DNA from: Alphaproteobacteria bacterium
GTDB lineage: Bacteria > Pseudomonadota > Alphaproteobacteria > Micavibrionales > Micavibrionaceae
Reading direction: 5' to 3'
Length of the DNA stretch: 64,000 nt
Assembly (NCBI GenBank): GCA_023150415.1
Contig: JAKLKY010000004.1
Location: forward strand, 5,647-69,646
The notes below the pieces were generated by a model. The model was given only the letters and a program-made list of their open reading frames with translations. It made no database searches and was not told the DNA's origin. Shown here one piece after another: positions 41,788 through 60,616 of this stretch (position 1 is the stretch's first letter; each line of letters begins with the position of its first letter). Made by a program: the position numbers and the translations under genes.

Positions 41788-43995
41788 TTACCAGCCAGAA
41801 GTTTTTAGGCGCAAGGCATTTAAAATCACGCTCACCGAAGATAGAGACATGGCTGCTGCCGCGATAATCGGCGAGAGCAGGATACCAAAGAATGGGTAGA
41901 GGACACCAGCCGCGATTGGTACGCCCGCTGCATTGTATACAAATGCAAAAAACAGGTTCTGGCGGATATTGTTCATCGTCGCCACGGATAACTTGCGAGC
42001 ACGGACAATGCCGGTTAGATCACCTTTTAGCAGCGTGACACCCGCACTTTCCATCGCCACATCCGTGCCAGTGCCCATGGCAATCCCAACATCGGCGGCA
42101 GCCAGCGCCGGGGCATCATTGGTGCCGTCCCCCGCCATAGCAACAACGCGGCCTTCATCGCGTAATTTTTTAACGATCTTGCCTTTATCTTCCGGCAAAA
42201 TTTCAGCCTCAACCTCTGTGATGCCCAGCGTTTTTGCCACGGCCTCGGCAGTACGACGATTATCGCCGGTAAGCATGACAATGCGAATGCCCTGAGCGTG
42301 CAGGGCTTTGATAGCGGCGGGCGTTGTTTCTTTGATCGGATCAGCAATAGCCAGAAGCCCAGCGATTTTTCCATCAACGGCTATAAAAATCACCGTTGCC
42401 CCGTCGCTGCGCAGTTCATCGGCTTGTGCAGACAAAGCTGATACATTAATGGATTTTTCTTCCATCAGCATCACATTGCCGAGCGCAATATCTTGGGCTT
42501 TTATTTTACCGATAACACCTTTACCTGTTGGAGAGTCAAAATCTTGCGTCTGTGATAAATCCAGTCCCTTGTCCTTCGCCGCCATAACAATGGCATGAGC
42601 CAGCGGGTGTTCGCTTCCCTGTTCCAGTGATGCCGCCAGCGCCAGCAATTCATCCTCGCCAAAACCTTCGGCGGCGACACTTTTTGTGACAGTCGGTTTG
42701 CCTTCTGTCAGCGTGCCAGTTTTATCAATCACCAGTGTATCGACCTTTTCCATGCGTTCCAGCGCCTCGGCGTTTTTAATCAGCACGCCCGCCTGCGCCC
42801 CTTTACCAACCCCGACCATGATAGACATAGGCGTGGCCAACCCCAAAGCGCAGGGACAAGCGATAATCAGAACACTGACGGCGGCGATCAGGCCGTAACT
42901 AAAGGCAGGCACAGGGCCAAATATGAGCCATGCAATAAAGGCTATAACGGCAACCAGAATAACCGCAGGCACAAACCATCCTGAAACAATATCGGCCAGC
43001 CTTTGAATAGGTGCGCGGCTGCGCTGCGCCTCGGCAACCATATGCACAATTTGCGAGAGCATAGTGTCTTTACCGACACGCTCGGCTTTCATGACAAAAC
43101 TGCCGGTCTGGTTCATTGTTGCGCCAATGACTTTGTCGCCCGCTTCTTTCATTACAGGCATGGACTCGCCCGTGACCATGGACTCATCAACGGCGCTTTT
43201 TCCTTCCGTCACGATACCGTCCAGCGGCACTTTCTCGCCGGGGCGAACGCGCAAGAGATCACCAACCTTGATTTGATCCAGCGGCACATCTTCATCATCG
43301 CCATTCTCACTGACCCGCCGGGCGGTTTTCGGAGCGAGATCAAGCAGTGCGCGAATTGCGCCGCCCGTTTGTTCGCGGGCTTTAAGCTCCAATACCTGAC
43401 CCAGCAACACCAGCACCGTAATCACGGCGGCGGCTTCAAAATAAACCGCAACGGCGCCATCTTGCCGGAATGTATCGGGGAAGATGCCGGGAACAAGGGT
43501 TGCCACAACGCTGTAAAGCCAGGCCACGCCTGTTCCCATGGCAATTAACGTGAACATATTCAGATTGCGGGTTTTTAAGGATGCCCAGCCGCGTTCAAAA
43601 AACGGTTTTCCGGCCCATAGGACGACAGGCGTAGCCAGCACAAGCTGTATCCAGTTAGATGCTGTGCCGCTGATATAATGGTGCAAATCCAGAAGATGCG
43701 CGCCCATCTCCAAGGCAAAAACAGGCAGAGTTAAAATCAAACCAATCCAGAAGCGTCTTTTAAAATCAGTTAATTCAGGATTTTCACCTTCCGCGCCGGT
43801 AATCGTTTCCGGCTCCAGCGCCATGCCGCAAATCGGGCAGTTGCCGGGGCCGCTTTGCCGCACTTCCGGATGCATGGGACAGATATAAATCACATCCCCG
43901 CCAGCAGGCACCGTGACAGGTTTCGCTTTGTCGCCATGCTCGTGATGACAACAAGAATGCTCTTCTGCTCCGTGTTTATCGTGTTCCTGTCCCAT
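41788..43995 (-). CDS. copA: Copper-translocating P1B-type ATPase
   Basis: CPC ([12 protein letters not shown]), [16 protein letters not shown]-terminal His/Cys stretch [10 protein letters not shown] and zinc-ribbon-like [22 protein letters not shown]. Start at ATG 43995, after AAGGAG. Confidence 0.93.
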
Positions 43996-44012
43996 ATGTA
44001 TCTCCTTGTTTT

Positions 44013-45380
44013 CTATTTTTCTTTCCACCCGCCGCCCATGGCTTTGAATAGCTCAATGCAGGCGGACAGCGTTTCGTATCGGGCGCGTTCATACTGATCT
44101 TCGGACTCCAGCATCATGCGCTGTGAATCTAAAACATCCTGAAACTCAATAACGCTCAAACTATATTGGTTTTTTGCTATATCGTACGCTTCATGCGCTT
44201 TAGCGGCTGTCTGTTTCAAAGCTTTTTCCCTTTCCAGAGTTTTTTGTACTTTCGTCAACGCATTTTCTGCCTCCTGAAAAGCCACAAGCACCGTTTGCTG
44301 ATAATTCTCTGCCAGTTCTTTTTGACGCGCCGTCACGCGATCCAGCTTGCCTTCCAGACGCCCGCCCTGAAAAATCGGCACAAATATCGATCCTGCCATT
44401 GTGAAGGCGGACCCCGACGGGTTGGCAGCAAACAACAAACTGGGGCCAATATTCATCGATGGATAAAAAGCCGCCCGCGCCGCGCCGATATCCGCATTGG
44501 CAGCCTTTAGACTTGCTTCCATGCTTTTAATATCTGGTCTGCGTTCCAGCAAATCGGAGGGCTGCACTACGGCCACGTTCGGAATATGCAGTCCCTTATA
44601 ACTTTTTGCCTCAACATTAAAACTCTGCGGCGGCTCACCCACCAAAACAGCCAGCGCATTTTGTGCCAAGGCCAGTTCCTGCTCTAAAGCCGTTACAACA
44701 GCACCAGCCTTAGACACTTGCATTTCCTGCCTTGTGATATCCAACTGTGTACGCGCCCCGGTTTGAAAGCGAGCTTCGGCTACTTCCAGCAAATCGTGCG
44801 TGGCTTCAAGATTATTCTGCGCTATACGGCGGCGCTCTTTTAAATTCAGGACATTGAAATAATTTTGCGCCACATCACCCATGATAACTAGCGCCAACGC
44901 ATCGTGGGCATATTGGGTTCCTTTAAGCCCGGATTTTGATGCATCAACTTTCGCACGGTTTGCACCGAACAAATCCAGCTCATAGGAAAGACCTGCATCG
45001 GCTGTGTAATCAGGAATGCCTTTATTTCGCATATCGGTGATATTCATCGCTTGCGTAGAACCGCTCATATAAGAGGCCGTCACATCGGCGGAAGGTAAAA
45101 GCGATGCCCCGGCAATTTTTAAATCCGCGCGCGCTTGTTCGATACGCTGCAAAGACGCTTGTAGATTATTGTTATTGACAAGGGCGCGCTCCATCAACTC
45201 GTTTAATTCCACGCTTTCAAAACTCGTCCACCAGTCAGCAGCGACTTCAGCGTTCTTTATGCTCTGCGCATCCTGCCAGGCAGGTGTTTGGGCCTCCGGT
45301 CTATGATAGTCCGGCGTCATGGAACAAGCCGAAAGTAAGATCAGCACTGATTTTAAAATCAAAAAATTCTTATGCTTCAT
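44013..45380 (-). CDS. cusC: Outer-membrane efflux factor (NodT/CusC family lipoprotein)
   Basis: Lipobox LLSAC, two OEP repeats, C-terminal ALGGGW-like KAMGGGWK. Confidence 0.85.
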
Positions 45381-48300
45381 GGCCTGTATCCTTCGGCAGT
45401 TTGAGCTTCCATTGCATATACACAGCGTAGAGCACGGGGATCAGGATTAGCGTTAAGATGAGTGTGCTGACCATGCCGCCAACCATCGGCAAGGCAATAC
45501 GCCGCATCACATCCGAACCCGGCCCATCTGTCAGGAAAATCGGGATCAGGCCGAGAATGATCGTGCTCACCGTCATCAGCTTGGGCCGCAGACGTTGCAA
45601 GGCCCCATGGCGAACATTTTCCAGCAGTTTCTCAAACGTATCCGGCCAGTGTTCCCGCATTTCATGATCAATATAGATCAGCATGACAATCGCGGTTTCT
45701 ACAGCAATCCCGGCCAGAGCGATAAACCCGACGACCACGGCTACAGAGAGATTATAGTCCGCCAGCCACAGCCACCAGACTCCGCCAATCACACCAAACG
45801 GAACGGACAGCATAATCAGGATTGTGCGGTCCCACCGGCCAAAATGGAGGTAAAGCAGCGTGATAATAATCAGCAGCGTCGCCGGAACAGCAATCTTTAA
45901 CCGCTCATTCGCCTCCTGCATCTGCTCAAATTGACCGGAGAATTTAAGAGTATAGCCTACGGGAAGCTCTAGCGTTTTAAGCGCTTCTTGCAAATCGGCG
46001 ATGTAAGAACCGATATCCCGATTCTCAATATCAACGAACACCCAGCCATTGAGCCGCGCATCTTCGGATTTGATCATAGACGGCCCTTCTGCTACGCGAA
46101 TGTCGGCGAGGGTCGCCAGCGGAATATGCGCGCCATTAGGGCTACTGACCAGAATATTATCCAGATCAGTGATATGCTCGCGGAAAGGCTGGTCATAGCG
46201 CACCATAATGGGGTAGCGTTCGCGCCCCTCTACGGCTTCATCAAGCTGCATGCCGCCAAGCGCGGTCTGGATCACCTGCTGCACGGTTTTCAGCGCTATG
46301 CCATAGCGGGCAAGTTCGCGGCGGTCAGGAATAATCTCTATATATTTCCCACCAACAACACGATCAGCAATGGCGCTGCGGGTGCCCGGAACGTTTTTAG
46401 CACGAGCTTCAACGTCTTTTGCAATCCTGTCGATTTCTTGCAAGTCAGACCCGGCAATCTTAACCCCGATGGGTGTGCGAATACCTGTCGTCAGCATATC
46501 GAGCCGTATTTTGATCGGATAACCCCAGCTATTCATCATGCCCGGCAGCCCGACACGCTCATTCAAATCAGCAATCAGCTTTTGCGGCGTCATGCCCTCG
46601 CGCCATTGATCGCGGGGTTTGAGTTTAATCCATGTTTCAATCATCGCCAGTGGCGCGGGGTCAGTGGCGGTATTTGCACGTCCGGCTTTGGCGAAGACCT
46701 GCTCAATTTCAGGGGCCTCCATCAACTGACGGTTTGTAACCTGCAATATTTCGCGGACCTTGGCAGGTGATACGCCCGGCAAGGTCATCGGCATATAGAG
46801 CAGCCCGCCTTCATAAAGCGGGGGCATGAATTCACTGCCAAGTTTGGACGCCGGAAGTGCTGTGCTCATAAGCGCGATCAGCGCCAGTACCATCGTTGTC
46901 TTGCGCCACTTTAAAGCGGCATTGAGACACGGGCGGTAAAGCGCAATAAAAAACCGGTTGATCGGGTTTTCATCCTCTCGTTTGATTTTCCCGCGTATCA
47001 GCCAGAGCATCAAAACCGGTACCACCGTCACCGACAATAGTGCCGCTGCCGCCATCGCATATGTCTTGGTAAAGGCCAGCGGCGTGAACATGCGTTCTGA
47101 TTGACCAGTCAATGCAAAGACCGGAAAGAACGACACAGTGATAATCAGCAGGGAGAAAAACAGACCCGGCCCGACCTCCTTGGCCGCCTGTATTAGCGCT
47201 TTTTGTCTGTCCGCCTTATCGGCATCCGGTTCCATATCGGAGAGTTTCCGGTGTGCATTCTCCACCATAACAATCGAGGCATCGACCATGGCACCAATCG
47301 CAATCGCAATGCCCCCCAGCGACATGATATTGGCGGTAATGCCCTGCGCATTCATCACGATAAAAGCGGCCAGAATACCAAGCGGTATTGTAATAATAGC
47401 AACCAAAGCACTGCGCGCATGGAGCAGAAAGAGGAAGGCAATCAGCGCCACCATCAAGCTTTCTTCAATCAACTTGTCTTTGAGATAATCAACGGAACCT
47501 TCAATCAACTGGCTACGGTCATAAACGGTTTTCAGCTCTACGCCTTCGGGCAAACCCTGCTTTACGCTTTCCAAACGCTCTTTAACGTTATGAATGACAT
47601 CCAGCGCATTGGCTCCGGGACGCATCACAACGATGCCGCCGACCGCTTCACCTATACCGTTGAGTTCGGTAATGCCGCGCCGGATCGCCGGACCTTCCAC
47701 CACACGGGCAACATCACCCACCGTAATCGGCGTGCCATCCACATTCTTTAAAACCGCTTGCTGCAAATCCTCCGGCTTGTTCACGTAGCCGAATGACCGG
47801 ATCAAATATTCCGTCTCCGCCATTTCCAGCGTCCTGCCCCCAGTTTCCTGATTGGAAGAACGCACAGCCTCAATCACTTTTTGCAGCGGAATGTCATAAG
47901 CACGCAGCTTGTTGGGCTCAACCAGCACCTGATATTCTTTGACAAACCCGCCGACACTCGCCACTTCCGCCACACCGTCAATCGTGGCCAGCTCAAATCG
48001 GACAAACCAGTCCTGCAAGCTGCGCAGTTCTGCTAAATCATGCTGGCCTGTTTTATCAAATAACGCATATTGAAACACCCAGCCCACGCCGGTGGCATCC
48101 GGCCCTAGCTCCGGCTCCACGCCCTCCGGCAACATGCCACGCGCCTGCGAGAGATATTCCAGCGTCCGGCTGCGTGCCCAGTACATGTCAACATTATCTT
48201 CAAAAATGATATAGACAAACGATGTGCCGAACATAGAAAACCCGCGCACGACTTTAGTTTTCGGCAGGGATAGCATTTGTGTGGAAAGCGGATAGGTGAT

Positions 48301-48531
48301 CTGATCCTCAATCACCTGCGGTGCCTGTCCGGGGAAGTCTGTGCGGATAATCACCTGCGTATCGGATAAATCGGGGATAGCGTCCAACGGTATTTTGGTT
48401 ACGGAGACAATCCCAGCCACCAATAATACCAGTGCGCCCAGCATGACGAAAAACTGGTTTGCCACCGACCAGTCTATGATTTTGGCGGCAAAACTTTTGG
48501 ACGGATCGTGTATGTGATTAGTGCTGTCCAT
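45370..48531 (-). CDS. cusA: Heavy-metal RND efflux pump CusA
   Basis: 1053 aa with 12 TM segments, HME-RND layout and N-terminus IIDWSVANQFFVMLGALVLLVAGI. Confidence 0.95.
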   Translation of the reverse strand: MDSTNHIHDPSKSFAAKIIDWSVANQFFVMLGALVLLVAGIVSVTKIPLDAIPDLSDTQVIIRTDFPGQAPQVIEDQITYPLSTQMLSLPKTKVVRGFSMFGTSFVYIIFEDNVDMYWARSRTLEYLSQARGMLPEGVEPELGPDATGVGWVFQYALFDKTGQHDLAELRSLQDWFVRFELATIDGVAEVASVGGFVKEYQVLVEPNKLRAYDIPLQKVIEAVRSSNQETGGRTLEMAETEYLIRSFGYVNKPEDLQQAVLKNVDGTPITVGDVARVVEGPAIRRGITELNGIGEAVGGIVVMRPGANALDVIHNVKERLESVKQGLPEGVELKTVYDRSQLIEGSVDYLKDKLIEESLMVALIAFLFLLHARSALVAIITIPLGILAAFIVMNAQGITANIMSLGGIAIAIGAMVDASIVMVENAHRKLSDMEPDADKADRQKALIQAAKEVGPGLFFSLLIITVSFFPVFALTGQSERMFTPLAFTKTYAMAAAALLSVTVVPVLMLWLIRGKIKREDENPINRFFIALYRPCLNAALKWRKTTMVLALIALMSTALPASKLGSEFMPPLYEGGLLYMPMTLPGVSPAKVREILQVTNRQLMEAPEIEQVFAKAGRANTATDPAPLAMIETWIKLKPRDQWREGMTPQKLIADLNERVGLPGMMNSWGYPIKIRLDMLTTGIRTPIGVKIAGSDLQEIDRIAKDVEARAKNVPGTRSAIADRVVGGKYIEIIPDRRELARYGIALKTVQQVIQTALGGMQLDEAVEGRERYPIMVRYDQPFREHITDLDNILVSSPNGAHIPLATLADIRVAEGPSMIKSEDARLNGWVFVDIENRDIGSYIADLQEALKTLELPVGYTLKFSGQFEQMQEANERLKIAVPATLLIIITLLYLHFGRWDRTILIMLSVPFGVIGGVWWLWLADYNLSVAVVVGFIALAGIAVETAIVMLIYIDHEMREHWPDTFEKLLENVRHGALQRLRPKLMTVSTIILGLIPIFLTDGPGSDVMRRIALPMVGGMVSTLILTLILIPVLYAVYMQWKLKLPKDTGHEA

Positions 48532-49906
48532 GACCCTGCGGCTCCTGTGTTTCTGTCATGCCGCCGTGATCGTGCCCCATTGCCGCCATACCGCCTTTCA
48601 GATTGCTTTCGGCATCCAGCATAAACTGGCCGGATTTAACAATTTTTTGGCCGTGAGACAGGCCGCTTGTAATCTCAGTAAGGCCGCTCGCTGTAATCCC
48701 CGTTTCCACCATAACAGGACGGAAATACCCATCTCCGGCATCTTCAATCACGTACGCGCCCATGCCGCCATACAGAACGGCTTCGGCTGGTACGGCCAAA
48801 CGTGATTGCACTTTAGCATTAAATGCAGCGTCCACATATGTATCGGGCTTTAATGCGCCGTCCGGATTATCCAGCACCAGACGCACAGTGACGGTGCGAT
48901 TTTGCGGGTCATTCACAGGGTGAATAAAATCAACCAGCGCTTCATATTTTTTGCCTGTTTCGGGGATAGTGATTTTTGCGGGGATGCCAACTTCCAGAAA
49001 CCGAACATCACGCAGCGGGACATCCGCATTGACCCACACTTTGGTAAAATCCTGTAACTTTAACACGCTGCTGCCTTCATTCACATATGCGCCTTTGCGC
49101 ACATTCAGCCATGTAACTGTCCCATCGGCAGGGGCATAAAACGGCGTTTCCTCAAAAAATTTACCGCGTTCTTTTAGCTGCTCAATCGCCTTATCCTCCA
49201 TGCCGTACAAACGCAAACGCTGCGCAGCATTTCCTACGCGGGAGCCGATTAAAAAATCAGATTGGGCATTCATCAAATCAGGACTGTAATAAGTAAACAG
49301 CAAGTCGCCTTTCTTGACAGAATCTCCAACAGCATCCGTATTCAGATCGACAATCCAGCCTTTCGTACGAACATCAATCGCATATTCCAGCCGCGTGCTA
49401 GGCTCTATCCGGCCAAAGGCGCGAATGTTCAGACCAAATTCATGGTGGGCAACGCCGGAGGTTTTCACCCCCAGCGTTTGAATATAAGAAGGGTCAATCA
49501 AAAACGCGCCTTCCGGCTTGTCTTCATGATTTTCATGGGATTGGCTACCCTCATTTTTTGGCACCAGCGTCATGCCGCAGATCGGGCAGGTATCGCCTTC
49601 CTCCCCGTTAATATGAGGATGCATAGGGCAAATATAGACAGGAGGTCCGTCTACACTATCTGATGCGGGCGGAGGGGTTTGCATTTTATGTTCTGGGTTT
49701 TGCTCCGAAGAAGAGCCTTCTTCCATAGGGACAAGATGCATGCCGCAAATCGGGCAATTATCGCCCTCTACACCGGTTTCTTCTGGATGCATGGGGCAGT
49801 AGTGGGTATGGGCTTCGGTTTGAGATGAAGCTGTAACCCCGTTTTCTGCGGCCATTACGAATGGAGCAAAAGTAAATAAAAATAGGGTGAAAAGTAAAAT
49901 ACGCAT
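48518..49906 (-). CDS. cusB: Membrane-fusion protein CusB with two N-terminal zinc-ribbon-like metal-binding modules
   Basis: HYCPMHPEETGVEGDNCPICGM and YICPMHPHINGEEGDTCPICGM, followed by an HlyD/CusB body. Confidence 0.85.
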   Translation of the reverse strand: MRILLFTLFLFTFAPFVMAAENGVTASSQTEAHTHYCPMHPEETGVEGDNCPICGMHLVPMEEGSSSEQNPEHKMQTPPPASDSVDGPPVYICPMHPHINGEEGDTCPICGMTLVPKNEGSQSHENHEDKPEGAFLIDPSYIQTLGVKTSGVAHHEFGLNIRAFGRIEPSTRLEYAIDVRTKGWIVDLNTDAVGDSVKKGDLLFTYYSPDLMNAQSDFLIGSRVGNAAQRLRLYGMEDKAIEQLKERGKFFEETPFYAPADGTVTWLNVRKGAYVNEGSSVLKLQDFTKVWVNADVPLRDVRFLEVGIPAKITIPETGKKYEALVDFIHPVNDPQNRTVTVRLVLDNPDGALKPDTYVDAAFNAKVQSRLAVPAEAVLYGGMGAYVIEDAGDGYFRPVMVETGITASGLTEITSGLSHGQKIVKSGQFMLDAESNLKGGMAAMGHDHGGMTETQEPQGHGQH

Positions 49907-57037: not shown

Positions 57038-57490
57038 ATGAAACAGTTTAAAGACACACAAAGGGTCGGAGAATTTTGTATAGAAGGAAATTATCTACCA
57101 GGAGACTTAAAACTTAACGGATCGGAAACCACGTTAGAATTGCATTCAAAATCCGAGTTGCAAGGTACGCTGGAAAGGCACGGTGATATCCACGGGGTAT
57201 TGGGCGGTAATGAAAAAGTTTCTTTATTGGACTGCATAACAAGAAACTACAGCAGTAATTATAGCGGGGTTTCTGATGAACGGCGTTTTTCTGCATTTAT
57301 CTTTCCGCATTATGCTGTATTCGGACCGCTCCACATAAATCGCTCAGAACCAAAAATAACGGCATTGAATTTTGTTATTCAGGATGCGACAGAGCTCTTT
57401 TATGATTTTGGAGCTTTTGGGACAATTCTCAATAAAGACCTTGATATAAAATCAACGCTTGAACAGGTACTGTGTCATCCACACCGATAA
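57038..57490 (+). pseudogene. N-terminal-domain-only fragment resembling ApeA-type (HEPN-associated) NTD
   Basis: GEFCIEGNYLPGDLKLNGSETTLELHS...IHGVLGGNEKVSLLDCITRNYSS...FIFPHYAVFG follows the ApeA_NTD1 pattern as I recall it. It stops after 150 aa with no effector domain. Confidence 0.4.
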
Positions 57491-57857
57491 AACACAAAAG
57501 CTGACGCCGGAAGATACGCTCAAATTTCATGAACGCTATGTAGAAAACCTGATTAAATGGTTTGAGATTGATTTATCAGGGCCACGAGTTGTTTTATCGC
57601 ATCACGCACCAATACCAGGGCCGACAGGATTAAACCGTCATGGGATGAGGGAGATTGAACCAGCATACACGTCCCGAGATATGATCAAAATTATTGATCA
57701 GTATCAGCCCGATCTCTGGGTTTACGGCCACACACATCAGCCCAATGATCAGATCTTTGGCAAAACCCGGATAATTTCTAATCCGCGCGGTTATGCCTTC
57801 AGGCACGAGCTGTGCGAAGGTTTCGCCCCTTACGGCAAGCCGGTGGAGGTCAAATGA
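57459..57857 (+). pseudogene. C-terminal fragment of a calcineurin-like metallophosphoesterase
   Basis: Has VVLSHHAP and LWVYGHTHQP (late MPE motifs) but lacks the DxH / GDxxD / GNH(D/E) N-terminal motifs. Overlaps the preceding fragment in another frame. Confidence 0.6.
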
Positions 57858-57910: not shown

Positions 57911-59353
57911 TTACTTTACCTCCGTTAAGTATCCTGTCCGACCAGAACAAGGATAGCCATTTTTGTTTTTATGCTTATTAAGCTTGGAATCGTTTTTGCT
58001 GCGTGTGAATTTTTTCTGACACATAGGGCATTGAAAAACGTATTTAGGCCCGAAAGAAGAAGATCCTGCTCTTCTGACAGGCCGGGTTGCTCTTCGGATG
58101 GGTGTACCGAATGGTTTTATTTTTCTGGATTCGGCAACGGTCGGAGCCAGAACGACAGGTCCGCCCGAGGTCAGTTCAACCTCATAACGCGGCGTAAAGG
58201 CCCTGTTCGTCACGCGCGCCCCACGAATACGGTCCGTACGGTAGCTTCTATGTTCCCCATTCTCAACTTTAATGCCGTGCAAAATCACATCACCATTTTG
58301 TGTGGATCTCAGGGAATAAGGTTCAATGATAGGAGATGAATGACGGCCTTTATCATCAACATAGTCCAGTTCAACACACAATCTGTTGGCCGCCGCGAAG
58401 CGGATTATTTCAAGATGCTGTGCGCCATGCCTTACGGTCAAGCTGCGGCCAGGGCGCTCGCGGATAATCGTTTCGCCGGGCTTTAAAGGGTACGCTGTCG
58501 GAATGACCGGCTCGTGTCCATGTTCAATCCACTCAAAAATCGCGGGTAACTCGTTCCAGTAACTTTCAACCGGCGGAAGGTTCGGCAACTGGTGTCCCAG
58601 CATACTCGCCCACGAGCCTTCCAGGCTTTCTTTGTGTGATTCAAGATCGGCCAAAACCGGAACGGAAATCCCTTTAAATTCACATTTCTGCCGCAGAATA
58701 TCGAGAAGAACGCCTGCCGCCGGTTTGATGGTTGAGTTTCTGAACAGATTGACCACATCGTATAAATCGCGGGGGCGGGTTCTTTCCGCCAATGCCCTGA
58801 ATTTTTCGCCGAACACTTCTTCATAGACGTAGCAAAGCGCCTGAATACCGCCCTCCGGCTCATCCGAATAAGGGTGGTAAACGGGCTGCAGCGCAGGTGA
58901 CAACACAAGTTTTTCATCGGCTGTCAGATCAAGTTTGATTTTTGGATAGCCGCCTGAGGTCGGCGAAACAGGGCCGCGATAAGAAACTTTCCCCTGGCAT
59001 GATATTTTTCCGCGCGGATTTGTGTAGATATCAAAGGACAGGCCGTCTTTCGGAACCTCGATCCCCGTCTGTTCATATACCCATTCGGCTATGGTTTCGA
59101 ATGTGCCGCGCAGGAAATCTTTGTCAATCTGGCTTTCATCGATCAGCGTGAAATCGAGATCCTCGGAAAACCGGTATGTTTCGAAATAGCATTTTTTAAG
59201 ACAGGTTCCGCCCTTGAACACCCAGTTTTTATTTATTGCCGGATGATTATAGATACCGGCCAGCAGCCACCCCAAGACGTAATCTTTCTCGATAACGTCC
59301 GGGCGCAGGCTTACGGTGGCGGCCATGGCCAGAATTTCACGGCGGTCGATCAT
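57911..59353 (-). CDS. abiEii: AbiEii/DUF1814 nucleotidyltransferase toxin fused to a WYL-like domain and a C-terminal zinc ribbon
   Basis: IEKDYVLGWLL, FKGGTCLKK, FSEDLDF (NTase) in aa 1-300. aa ~305-392 has IIEPYSLRSTQNGDVILHGIKVENGEHRSYRTDRIRGARVTNRAFTPRY (WYL-type). aa 441-470 has CPMC...H...C. Confidence 0.85.
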   Translation of the reverse strand: MIDRREILAMAATVSLRPDVIEKDYVLGWLLAGIYNHPAINKNWVFKGGTCLKKCYFETYRFSEDLDFTLIDESQIDKDFLRGTFETIAEWVYEQTGIEVPKDGLSFDIYTNPRGKISCQGKVSYRGPVSPTSGGYPKIKLDLTADEKLVLSPALQPVYHPYSDEPEGGIQALCYVYEEVFGEKFRALAERTRPRDLYDVVNLFRNSTIKPAAGVLLDILRQKCEFKGISVPVLADLESHKESLEGSWASMLGHQLPNLPPVESYWNELPAIFEWIEHGHEPVIPTAYPLKPGETIIRERPGRSLTVRHGAQHLEIIRFAAANRLCVELDYVDDKGRHSSPIIEPYSLRSTQNGDVILHGIKVENGEHRSYRTDRIRGARVTNRAFTPRYEVELTSGGPVVLAPTVAESRKIKPFGTPIRRATRPVRRAGSSSFGPKYVFQCPMCQKKFTRSKNDSKLNKHKNKNGYPCSGRTGYLTEVK

Positions 59354-59365
59354 GGGTTCCTTCCG

Positions 59366-60154
59366 TTAAGCCCAGGTTTCGGGAATCCAGAGATTCCATT
59401 TACTGATCAAACGCGGGCTGGAAATAGCGGGATCAAGCTTGGCGTTTCCGGTTGTCATGCGGTCACGGCAGGGCTGAAGTAAAGCTTCGACGCCTGCTTG
59501 TTCTGCCAGAAAACCAAGCCTCTTGAATACGGCACCGTTTCCAAGCCGTGCGGCATAATCAATCAATTGATTTATATCCGATTCTTGATCTTTCAGGTAG
59601 GCTTTAAGGCATTCAAAAACATGCGTGATGCCGCCGCCCGTTTCCGGCGTATCGAGCATATCGACAATCGTGCGGTGCTTATCGGAGATGGACAGCTTTG
59701 TGCCGCCGCGCCATAGCGTTTTAAGGCCGAACAGATTTTCTTCTTTCGTGTGCTTCAGCGCAAAATCCGTTCCATGATAGGTCTGCGTTTTATGACGCAC
59801 TTCATGAGTTGTGAAAACGAAGATGCTGCGGAATATTTGTTCCGTGAAATCGTGGTGGCCCGCCGCCGTCCATCCGCCGATATAACAAGGTCCGAAAAGT
59901 GAAGGAGCCAGTATCCAAGGGTCTTCGATAACCTGTTGCGTTGTAAGGGCGTCCAGCGGCACAGGTGCGTAAAGACCGGGACCGACCCGCGCCAGCCAGC
60001 CTTGATGCGTCCAGCGGGCCAGCATTTTGGCAGCGTCCTGCCTTTCAAGGTCAAGTGCCTCCGCAGCGTCATCAATAGACACCAGCCTTCCTGCCGCCTG
60101 CAAAACAGTGGAAAGCCGCGCCCGGCCTTGACTTATAGAAGTTTCCTGTTCCAT
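59366..60154 (-). CDS. abiEi: AbiEi family type IV antitoxin / transcriptional regulator
   Basis: N-terminal wHTH (VSIDDAAEALDLERQDAAKMLARWTHQGWLARVGPGLY) and C-terminal AbiEi domain. ATG 60154 preferred over GTG 60181. Confidence 0.8.
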   Translation of the reverse strand: MEQETSISQGRARLSTVLQAAGRLVSIDDAAEALDLERQDAAKMLARWTHQGWLARVGPGLYAPVPLDALTTQQVIEDPWILAPSLFGPCYIGGWTAAGHHDFTEQIFRSIFVFTTHEVRHKTQTYHGTDFALKHTKEENLFGLKTLWRGGTKLSISDKHRTIVDMLDTPETGGGITHVFECLKAYLKDQESDINQLIDYAARLGNGAVFKRLGFLAEQAGVEALLQPCRDRMTTGNAKLDPAISSPRLISKWNLWIPETWA

Positions 60155-60213
60155 TGCTATACTATTGCTCCGTTTTTTCACGAAAAACGTGAATTTATAG
60201 ATTAATAATATAG
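60151..60213. repeat. 63-bp abiE promoter/operator unit, proximal copy (contains TTCACG-N5-CGTGAA)
   Basis: Near-identical to 60237-60299 at an 86-bp offset. This copy ends in the abiEi ATG. Confidence 0.6.
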
Positions 60214-60236
60214 TAAAAACCTTACGATTGCACGAA

Positions 60237-60299
60237 CAATAGCTATACTATCGATCCATTTTTTCACGAAAAATGTGAATTTATGGATCAGTAATATAG
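60237..60299. repeat. 63-bp abiE promoter/operator unit, distal copy (contains TTCACG-N5-TGTGAA)
   Basis: Same unit as 60151-60213. ATT replaces the ATG at the equivalent position. Confidence 0.6.

Positions 60300-60539: not shown

Positions 60540-60616
<77 letters not shown>

Follow-up and report, generated by a model that had tools for sequence, protein, structure and literature searches.

AbiE, a toxin-antitoxin system once classed as type IV and now proposed to be of type VII, pairs an antitoxin/repressor, AbiEi, with a nucleotidyltransferase toxin, AbiEii. The AbiEi/AbiEii pairs of Streptococcus agalactiae and Lactococcus lactis were reportedly described by Dy et al. in 2014. Here, we analyzed a 64,000-nucleotide (nt) stretch of DNA from an alphaproteobacterium of the family Micavibrionaceae (assembly GCA_023150415.1, contig JAKLKY010000004.1, positions 5,647 to 69,646; hereafter the window), which carries an AbiE cassette whose toxin continues for about 180 residues beyond the nucleotidyltransferase. 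This extension, consisting of a WYL domain, a short conserved motif, a basic linker and a Cys2-His-Cys tail, is shared by thousands of proteins, and we tentatively regard it as an arm that would bind the RNA substrate or another single-stranded nucleic acid.

AbiE is the fourth most abundant phage-defense system (PMC11375011). In a 2026 preprint by Arrowsmith et al., S. agalactiae AbiEii was found to use UTP and CTP on tRNAs and to be silenced by AbiEi, which induces auto-phosphorylation of T65, the phospho-acceptor in motif I of the toxin (bioRxiv 10.64898/2026.01.19.700257). The MenT toxins of Mycobacterium tuberculosis extend tRNA acceptor stems and are likewise silenced by auto-phosphorylation of a motif-I Ser or Thr (PMC7450476, PMC10435456, PMC11375011), the phospho-acceptor being T39 in MenT1 (PMC11375011) and S78 in MenT3 (PMC7725324). 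No mention of WYL was found in the papers on S. agalactiae AbiE and MenT (bioRxiv 10.64898/2026.01.19.700257, PMC11375011). A fusion of WYL to an "AbiGII-like nucleotidyltransferase (DUF1814)" was, however, listed by Makarova, Anantharaman, Grishin, Koonin and Aravind in 2014, with ligand sensing as its proposed role; as given in the domain list of that article, this is the architecture of the window toxin (PMC4012209).

A complete AbiE cassette with a long toxin

The cassette shares with the S. agalactiae and L. lactis systems an antitoxin-first two-gene operon, a winged helix-turn-helix (wHTH) AbiEi repressor and a DUF1814 toxin with four motifs, including a motif-I Thr at the position of the auto-phosphorylated T65. 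It differs in that the characterized toxin has about 300 amino acids and carries neither a WYL domain nor a zinc tail. Moreover, sequence identity is low, and the window AbiEi belongs to the AbiEi_4 type. The features of the cassette are as follows.

57911..59353, minus strand: abiEii-WYL-Zn gene, 480 amino acids plus stop codon, open throughout
58484..59353, minus strand: DUF1814/AbiEii nucleotidyltransferase, residues 1-290 (Pfam PF08843, predicted fold, motifs)
58199..58417, minus strand: WYL domain, residues 313-385 (Pfam PF13280, AlphaFold, Foldseek, profile alignment)
58157..58198, minus strand: post-WYL motif FxPRYxVELTxxGP, residues 386-399, predicted coil
58052..58156, minus strand: variable basic Ser/Arg/Pro-rich linker, residues 400-434, predicted disordered, with predicted local distance difference test (pLDDT) scores below 35
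57914..58051, minus strand: putative C-terminal zinc-binding tail, residues 435-480
59366..60181, minus strand: abiEi antitoxin/repressor gene (PADLOC PDLC02271, E 6.8e-116; Pfam AbiEi_4)

Homologs were collected by a protein search, in which 8,000 candidates were scored, and by a locus scan with one genome per prokaryotic species, from which 80 loci were kept for analysis; residue counts below refer to 73 aligned family members unless stated otherwise. The toxin was assigned to AbiEii because it matches the Pfam and PADLOC models, has intact motifs and a predicted MenT3/TglT-like fold, and is preceded directly by an AbiEi homolog in all 80 loci. Pfam PF08843 covers residues 30-265 (E 2e-35; 123.2 bits against a cut-off of 22.5 bits), and the PADLOC AbiEii model PDLC02317 covers residues 1-401 (E 2.9e-195). 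By the DUF1814 motif definitions (I, GG[ST]; II, [DE]x[DE]; III, KxD; IV, K..A...R...RD..D), all four motifs are present, as K47-G-G-T50, E64-D-L-D67, K140-L-D142 and K184…R191…R195-D196…D199, and their residues are conserved in 71 to 73 of the 73 sequences. The first-pass annotation of this DNA had recognized the nucleotidyltransferase by KGGTCL (residues 47-52) and EDLDF (residues 64-68) and had described an extension of about 180 residues after it, which agrees with the domain match and the 480-residue open frame.

In Foldseek searches, the AlphaFold model of residues 1-290 was matched best by M. tuberculosis MenT3/TglT-MenA3 and MenT1/MenT4 (PDB 6y5u, 6j7s, 6y56). The match to MenT3/TglT (E 3e-7 to 6e-6; TM score about 0.56-0.60 on the target) suggests a MenT/AbiEii-like bilobed fold for the predicted structure, and motifs I and II align to MenT4 (PDB 6y56). 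Unlike the window toxin, the MenT toxins have no C-terminal extension; identity over the structural alignments is 10-13%, and some are paired with different antitoxin families. Thr50, putatively phosphorylatable by its position, is Thr in 121 of 121 AbiEi-linked proteins and, among the 73 loci, Thr in 72 and Ser in one.

The abiEi open reading frame (ORF) opens with GTG at 60181. The true start is likely the ATG at 60154, giving 262 amino acids, because the PADLOC profile begins at ORF residue 13 (profile positions 3-262 correspond to residues 13-271). The antitoxin gene, of the wHTH, COG5340 type, comes first and ends 12 nt before the abiEii ATG, upstream of which lies a GGAAGGA ribosome-binding site. 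Judged from its sequence, the cassette can securely be called a two-gene AbiE toxin-antitoxin/abortive-infection system on a tRNA-Met island.

WYL domain and zinc tail of the extension

After the WYL domain, the extension continues with a 14-residue motif, a disordered linker and a 46-residue zinc tail. The first-pass annotation had placed a WYL segment at 58178-58441 (residues 305-392), and both a Pfam scan and a fold comparison located the domain there. PF13280 matches residues 313-381 with 27.7 bits against a gathering score of 21.8 bits, and the landmarks are E344-P-Y-S-L-R349, the I-L-H359 strand and H368-R-S-Y-R372-T-D-R375-I. AlphaFold (22 sequences) returned a confident nucleotidyltransferase, a WYL domain with pLDDT 84-92 and a tail with pLDDT about 90, at an overall predicted template modeling score (pTM) of 0.59. 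The WYL part of the model can be superposed on its counterparts in DriD, BrxR and CapW at about 2 Å over 75-81 columns, with 2.0 Å over 76 columns for the C-domain of DriD in complex with single-stranded DNA (ssDNA); PafBC was also matched. By sequence, the WYL segment alone found no match in the PDB, and a family profile was needed to reach PafBC.

In the family profile alignment, R208, R211 and R214 of Mycobacterium smegmatis PafB correspond to R369, R372 and R375 of the window toxin, so that all three arginines are present; R211 and R214 are essential for ssDNA binding by PafB (PMC11804915). The toxin therefore shares the WYL barrel and the R-x-[FY]-R-x-x-R-I arginines with the wHTH-WYL-WCX regulators PafBC, DriD, CapW and BrxR. 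It is nevertheless not a member of that group, since its WYL domain is fused to an enzyme instead of a DNA-binding domain, the aromatic residue of the WYL motif is replaced by Ile, Val or Leu, and neither a WCX nor a helix-turn-helix (HTH) domain was found in the 480-residue product by Pfam scan or in the AlphaFold model. In CapW and PafBC, the ssDNA crevice has the WCX domain as its other wall, and this domain also passes the signal on (PMC11662680, PMC11804915).

Conservation within the domain is uneven: R369 is kept in 73 of 73 members, R372 in 60, R375 in 56 and H359 in 46. In a subclade of about 12-14 of the 73 AbiEi-linked members, with segments such as RAYLLNSIL or RSYLVDSIL, R372, R375 and H359 are replaced by Leu, Ser and Met, whereas every zinc ligand is retained, indicating that the family can do without the canonical arginine groove of WYL. 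As far as alignment and model can tell, the toxin retains the WYL fold and part of the basic groove, but not the full sensor apparatus.

The post-WYL motif has the highest mean pairwise identity of all regions (0.68, compared with 0.64 for the core, 0.58 for the WYL domain, 0.52 for the tail and 0.20 for the linker), and P388 and E393 within it are invariant (73/73). Mean net charge is -12.5 for the core, +3.2 for the WYL domain, +6.3 for the linker and +7.2 for the tail. AlphaFold predicts residues 397-433 to be disordered, and the linker carries a net charge of +3 to +12 in all 73 members despite its low identity.

The first-pass annotation had noted a basic linker and after it CPMC-x15-H-x7-C at about 57938-58042, labeled a zinc ribbon. 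The linker and the spacing hold, as does the Cys/His motif itself: the putative ligands C442-P-M-C445-x15-H461-x7-C469 are invariant in alignments of 22, 71 and 73 sequences, and F449, G466 and G471, within the wider pattern G-P-x-Y-V-F-x-C442-x2-C445-x3-F449…L458-x2-H461-x4-G466-x2-C469-x-G471-R, are each present in 73 of 73. A zinc ribbon, however, has two CxxC-type knuckles on beta-hairpins, whereas the tail has one CxxC knuckle plus a His and a Cys. Folded alone (71 sequences), the tail is modeled as all-beta (mean pLDDT 84), and Foldseek gave no significant structural match for it (best E 0.45), the nearest being the zinc-ribbon modules of MCM N-terminal domains (TM score 0.54, 2.6 Å over 48 columns, non-significant). 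By sequence, the tail weakly resembles C2H2 fingers in the PDB (E 0.0024-0.1); Pfam zf-C2H2_4 falls below its cut-off, and poly-C2H2 proteins match positions 11-41 of the tail profile. The classical C2H2 pattern is C-x2-4-C-x3-F-x5-L-x2-H-x3-5-H, with an alpha-helix bearing the His ligands. Such a finger was rejected for the tail, in which x8 takes the place of the x5 spacing, a Cys at +8 is the last ligand and no helix appears in either model. Because of the weak C2H2 echo, the all-beta model and the lack of a significant structural neighbor, we describe the tail as a putative Cys2-His-Cys zinc module of uncertain fold class, for which "zinc ribbon" is only a loose label.

A second prokaryotic context for the tail was sought with a 71-sequence profile against 1.84 billion representatives, and none emerged among the top 150 matches. 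These comprised 116 colinear family members or fragments, 14 odd fragments and 20 proteins without a BLAST match to the toxin, nearly all of which were long proteins with many C2H2-like stretches. In four proteins (P0299, P0336, P0347 and P0386), the first 54-158 residues of the toxin are joined straight to the zinc tail; these apparent internal-deletion forms could be assembly or gene-calling artifacts or real deletion variants.

Distribution of the fused toxin

At least 7,919 of the 8,000 candidates scored were significant homologs. The top 120 had 466-501 amino acids, at least 98% query coverage and 55-99% identity, and nearly all contained both PF08843 and PF13280. The species-representative scan yielded at least 584 loci, from Alpha-, Beta- and Gammaproteobacteria, Acidobacteriota, Gemmatimonadota, Nitrospirota, Planctomycetota, Latescibacterota, Thermodesulfobacteriota and others. 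The gap between AbiEi homolog and toxin was 6-27 nt in 78 of the 80 loci analyzed, and in 72 the toxin frame ran uninterrupted into the C-x2-C…H…C tail, so that all intact copies are tailed. The 396-position PADLOC model PDLC02317 spans the nucleotidyltransferase and the WYL domain and ends before the linker; the invariant Cys2-His-Cys tail was seen neither in this profile nor in the domain list of PMC4012209. By these comparisons, the window toxin is an ordinary member of a large, catalogued AbiEii-WYL-zinc subfamily and adds nothing to the catalogue.

At the remaining eight loci (L021, L031, L041, L060, L071, L075, L078 and L079), the frame is broken by internal stops or frameshifts and AbiEi is still present. 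A free-standing module of WYL domain and tail was considered and rejected: a search with residues 300-480 gave only 218 proteins of 100-317 amino acids, mostly on contigs of about 1 kb, and the two examined on long contigs (L001 and L002) directly follow a truncated AbiEii ORF and are therefore split genes. The broken frames at these ten places could reflect either decay of the toxin or errors in metagenome assembly.

A few large Rhizobium and Thiodictyon plasmids also carry the long form, annotated there as an AbiEii/AbiGii family toxin, and no phage-borne copy was found among 50,697 phage records. In the 1.9-Mb host assembly, the window toxin is the only AbiEii. Among 40 relatives, a single 99% identical copy was found, in a different genus of the same family (G016:C6:3464-4903), which fits a mobile gene and suggests that the cassette or island was recently transferred horizontally. 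Another 38 relatives lack the AbiEi-linked toxin form; one of them has a distant version, and three have weak matches only.

A sister family without AbiEi

A sister family of at least 1,782 proteins (E <= 1e-10), 25-29% identical to the window toxin, was reached from two proteins, one on a Streptomyces plasmid (29% identity over residues 1-398) and one of 503 amino acids in one of the relatives (G038; 25%). The following sister-family loci were inspected.

L085:1501-2739
L083:1241-2752
L089:4001-5353
L090:4001-5359
L092:4001-5368
L093:1897-3144
L096:3001-4242

The sister proteins share the layout of nucleotidyltransferase, WYL-like segment, FEPRxEIEL motif, basic linker and Cys2-His-Cys tail. 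Of 120 members, 99 have the tail, and a small subgroup ends in poly-Arg instead. No AbiEi was found beside sister-family genes in the eight places inspected, where the neighbors vary: a serine recombinase with DUF2924, a complete CBASS (cyclic oligonucleotide-based antiphage signaling system) of a two-transmembrane (2TM) protein and a cyclase, a TIR protein, PDC-S54 and a methyltransferase. That the extension is kept in a family without AbiEi suggests that AbiEi is not the reason for its existence. The two key arginines of the WYL groove are missing in two sister-family sequences inspected; the most constant parts of the extension appear from the alignments to be the zinc tail, the basic linker and the post-WYL motif rather than the canonical WYL groove.

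Motif I reads KGGN in 113 of 120 sister members, compared with KGGT in 121 of 121 AbiEi-linked proteins. The presence of AbiEi thus seems to track a phosphorylatable motif-I residue, which would fit the type VII model; like the points above on the extension, this is a raw correlation over few contexts, uncorrected for shared ancestry. The sister proteins may be single-gene systems under different regulation.

A compact type I CBASS, a 181-amino-acid 2TM effector followed by a 289-amino-acid cyclase, lies just upstream of the tail-less Streptomyces toxin homologs.

L093:84-1508
L095:1251-2677
L085:29-1153

In a Streptomyces plasmid record, the 2TM and cyclase genes are apparently annotated as a single 374-amino-acid "nucleotidyltransferase". 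The CBASS cyclase was considered as a partner of the tail-less AbiEii-WYL-like protein and rejected as a functional pair, because a 2TM effector of its own directly precedes the cyclase (E 3e-77), a gap of 320-390 nt separates the cyclase from the toxin homolog, and other members adjoin TIR, recombinase or PDC-S54 genes.

Possible roles of the extension

By analogy with MenT and S. agalactiae AbiEii, the DUF1814 domain would add nucleotides to tRNA 3' ends and thereby block translation. AbiEi would repress the operon at duplicated palindromic units and would keep the toxin silent by making it auto-phosphorylate Thr50 of KGGTCL. We favor, at slightly under an even chance, a reading in which the 180-residue extension is a nucleic-acid-binding arm: the Sm-like WYL barrel, the FxPRYxVEL motif, the disordered basic linker and the basic Cys2-His-Cys module would together bind a single-stranded nucleic acid, with the RNA substrate as the most probable one, and hold it on the acidic catalytic core. 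Such an arm would set affinity or target choice and would have no role as a switch. It is favored because the extension is uniformly basic, with a linker that is disordered and always basic, and the core is acidic; because the PafB-type R369, R372 and R375 are retained here; because the canonical ssDNA-binding arginines are dispensable in the subclade and apparently lost in two sister-family sequences; because the tail resembles nucleic-acid-binding C2H2 fingers by sequence; because the signal-relay WCX and HTH domains are absent; and because the extension is kept where AbiEi is not. A precedent is the WYL domain fused to the PIF1 helicase of Thermotoga elfii, the sole studied enzyme-fused WYL, which the title of that preprint calls an accessory ssDNA-binding module (bioRxiv 10.1101/163188). 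Both proteins place WYL on a nucleic-acid enzyme; the PIF1 protein differs in being a helicase without a zinc tail.

Several points weigh against an arm. The well-studied WYL domains of defense and DNA damage (PafBC, DriD and CapW) sense ssDNA and do not grip a substrate, and BrxR is a regulator of the same family. Two PafB positions are not reproduced: Y196, the Tyr of the WYL motif, whose mutation abolishes ssDNA binding (PMC11804915), corresponds to I357, with Val, Leu or Ile there across the family, and the entrance residue R181 corresponds to P341 (Arg in 67 and Pro in 6 of 73 members). Moreover, short AbiEii and MenT toxins have no arm and yet act on tRNA, and in a short Rhizobium leguminosarum AbiEii the first 270 residues together carry a net charge of -11. 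The notion that an acidic core needs a basic arm was therefore set aside as a discriminator, since one of three short AbiEii proteins is as acidic and the other two have near-neutral cores. In addition, the AlphaFold model has a pTM of only 0.59, and a full-text literature search found no experimental study of a WYL-bearing AbiEii. Mesorhizobium huakuii AbiE was considered as such a study object and rejected, its cassette being 1.42 kb in total and so of the short type.

The first-pass annotation had suggested that the toxin is either regulated in cis by a signal sensed through WYL or targeted to nucleic acid by WYL and zinc tail, as a layer beyond antitoxin control. Its domain calls were right and the idea is plausible, but it is not new, having been proposed in the WYL survey of Makarova et al. 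2014 (PMC4012209). In the cis-sensor version, the WYL domain and zinc tail would bind an infection or damage signal, ssDNA or a nucleotide, and license the nucleotidyltransferase allosterically, so that the toxin would have a trigger of its own in addition to AbiEi control. The superposition on ssDNA-bound DriD and the matches to CapW, BrxR and PafBC speak for this, as do the three arginines aligned with those that PafB needs for ssDNA binding, and CapW, a WYL repressor of defense systems, does sense ssDNA (PMC11662680). S. agalactiae AbiE failed to protect against any of 32 coliphages (bioRxiv 10.64898/2026.01.19.700257), and in the sister family, which has neither AbiEi nor a phosphorylatable motif-I residue, the extension is the only visible candidate for control. 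On the other hand, the WCX domain that helps to form the ssDNA tunnel and relay the signal in solved sensors is missing, along with the HTH and any known dimer interface; the WYL-motif tyrosine is gone; and about 12-14 of 73 members have lost R372, R375 and H359, and two sister-family sequences both arginines, whereas the zinc ligands are kept in 73 of 73 members. The whole extension, disordered linker included, is polybasic and looks like bulk nucleic-acid affinity instead of a specific pocket. We consider a cis sensor less likely than not but a serious rival, and the more pointed claim, that the WYL-zinc extension is a built-in trigger sensor for single-stranded nucleic acid or a nucleotide from phage or damage, switching the nucleotidyltransferase on directly, appears somewhat less likely still. 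Of the two alternatives, the evidence leans to the nucleic-acid-binding arm over the sensor, so that a layer beyond antitoxin control is possible only.

A third reading makes the extension a protein-protein module, for oligomerization or for docking AbiEi or a host or phage protein, with no binding of nucleic acid. The FxPRYxVEL motif, as conserved as the active site yet predicted to be coil, would suit a docking peptide, and the S. agalactiae AbiEi-AbiEii pair forms a stable complex via several interfaces (bioRxiv 10.64898/2026.01.19.700257). This is improbable, however, given that the extension, motif and tail included, persists in the sister family without AbiEi in the eight places inspected, and that strong positive charge and finger-like and WYL signatures point to nucleic acid. 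In some genomes, a "WYL domain protein" ORF comes after a truncated AbiEii ORF, as would be expected if two genes had been fused here by a sequencing or assembly error, a concern already raised in the first annotation, or if the extension were non-functional read-through. This explanation is refuted by the comparisons: a single frame is usual, as seen in the lengths of the top 120 among thousands of homologs and in the 72 uninterrupted loci; a 99% identical copy exists in another genus; the pairwise identities of the WYL domain and tail are nearly that of the core; and the split versions are exceptional and look like decayed copies.

Genomic setting of the cassette

Two further features lie beyond abiEi.

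60153..60299, no strand assigned: repeat pair upstream of abiEi, two 61-nt units, 86 nt spacing
60540..60616, minus strand: tRNA-Met (CAU) gene, island right edge

A repeat search found the two 61-nt copies to be 87% identical. The proximal copy abuts the abiEi ATG at 60154, and an imperfect palindrome (inverted repeat) was scored in the distal one. The pair is probably the AbiEi operator/promoter, a candidate assignment modeled on the autoregulation of S. agalactiae AbiEi, as cited in PMC7725324.

GC content is about 0.50 left of the tRNA-Met gene and 0.55-0.60 right of it. Left of the cassette lie an AAA_25 primase/helicase-like gene, DUF5677, gene fragments and a copper-type efflux block; with this cargo beside the tRNA-Met gene, the cassette occupies the end of an integrated island that is nearest the tRNA gene. 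Immediately downstream of the toxin, 57038-57857 holds a 150-amino-acid fragment of an ApeA N-terminal domain (Pfam PF18862, 129 of 271 profile positions) and a 132-amino-acid ORF overlapping it, which look like remnants of other defense genes. Further into the island, 41788-49906 encodes a heavy-metal P-type ATPase and a CusCBA-type efflux set, with HMBD metal-binding modules in both the ATPase and the membrane-fusion protein.

Significance for AbiE systems

The remaining interest lies in the function of the extension and in the contrast between Thr with AbiEi and Asn without it. A large share of AbiEii toxins, thousands of proteins from many phyla, on islands and plasmids, carry the WYL-zinc extension, whereas all bench work found in the literature concerns short AbiEii and MenT toxins. 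With invariant zinc ligands, an always-basic linker, dispensable WYL arginines and the link between AbiEi and Thr or Asn, the role of the extension is now directly testable. Should it prove to be a trigger sensor, it would override the silencing of Thr50 by phosphorylation in the AbiEi-linked family and would be the only control in the KGGN sister family, making its members single-gene abortive-infection systems, and it would answer how AbiE toxins become activated during infection.

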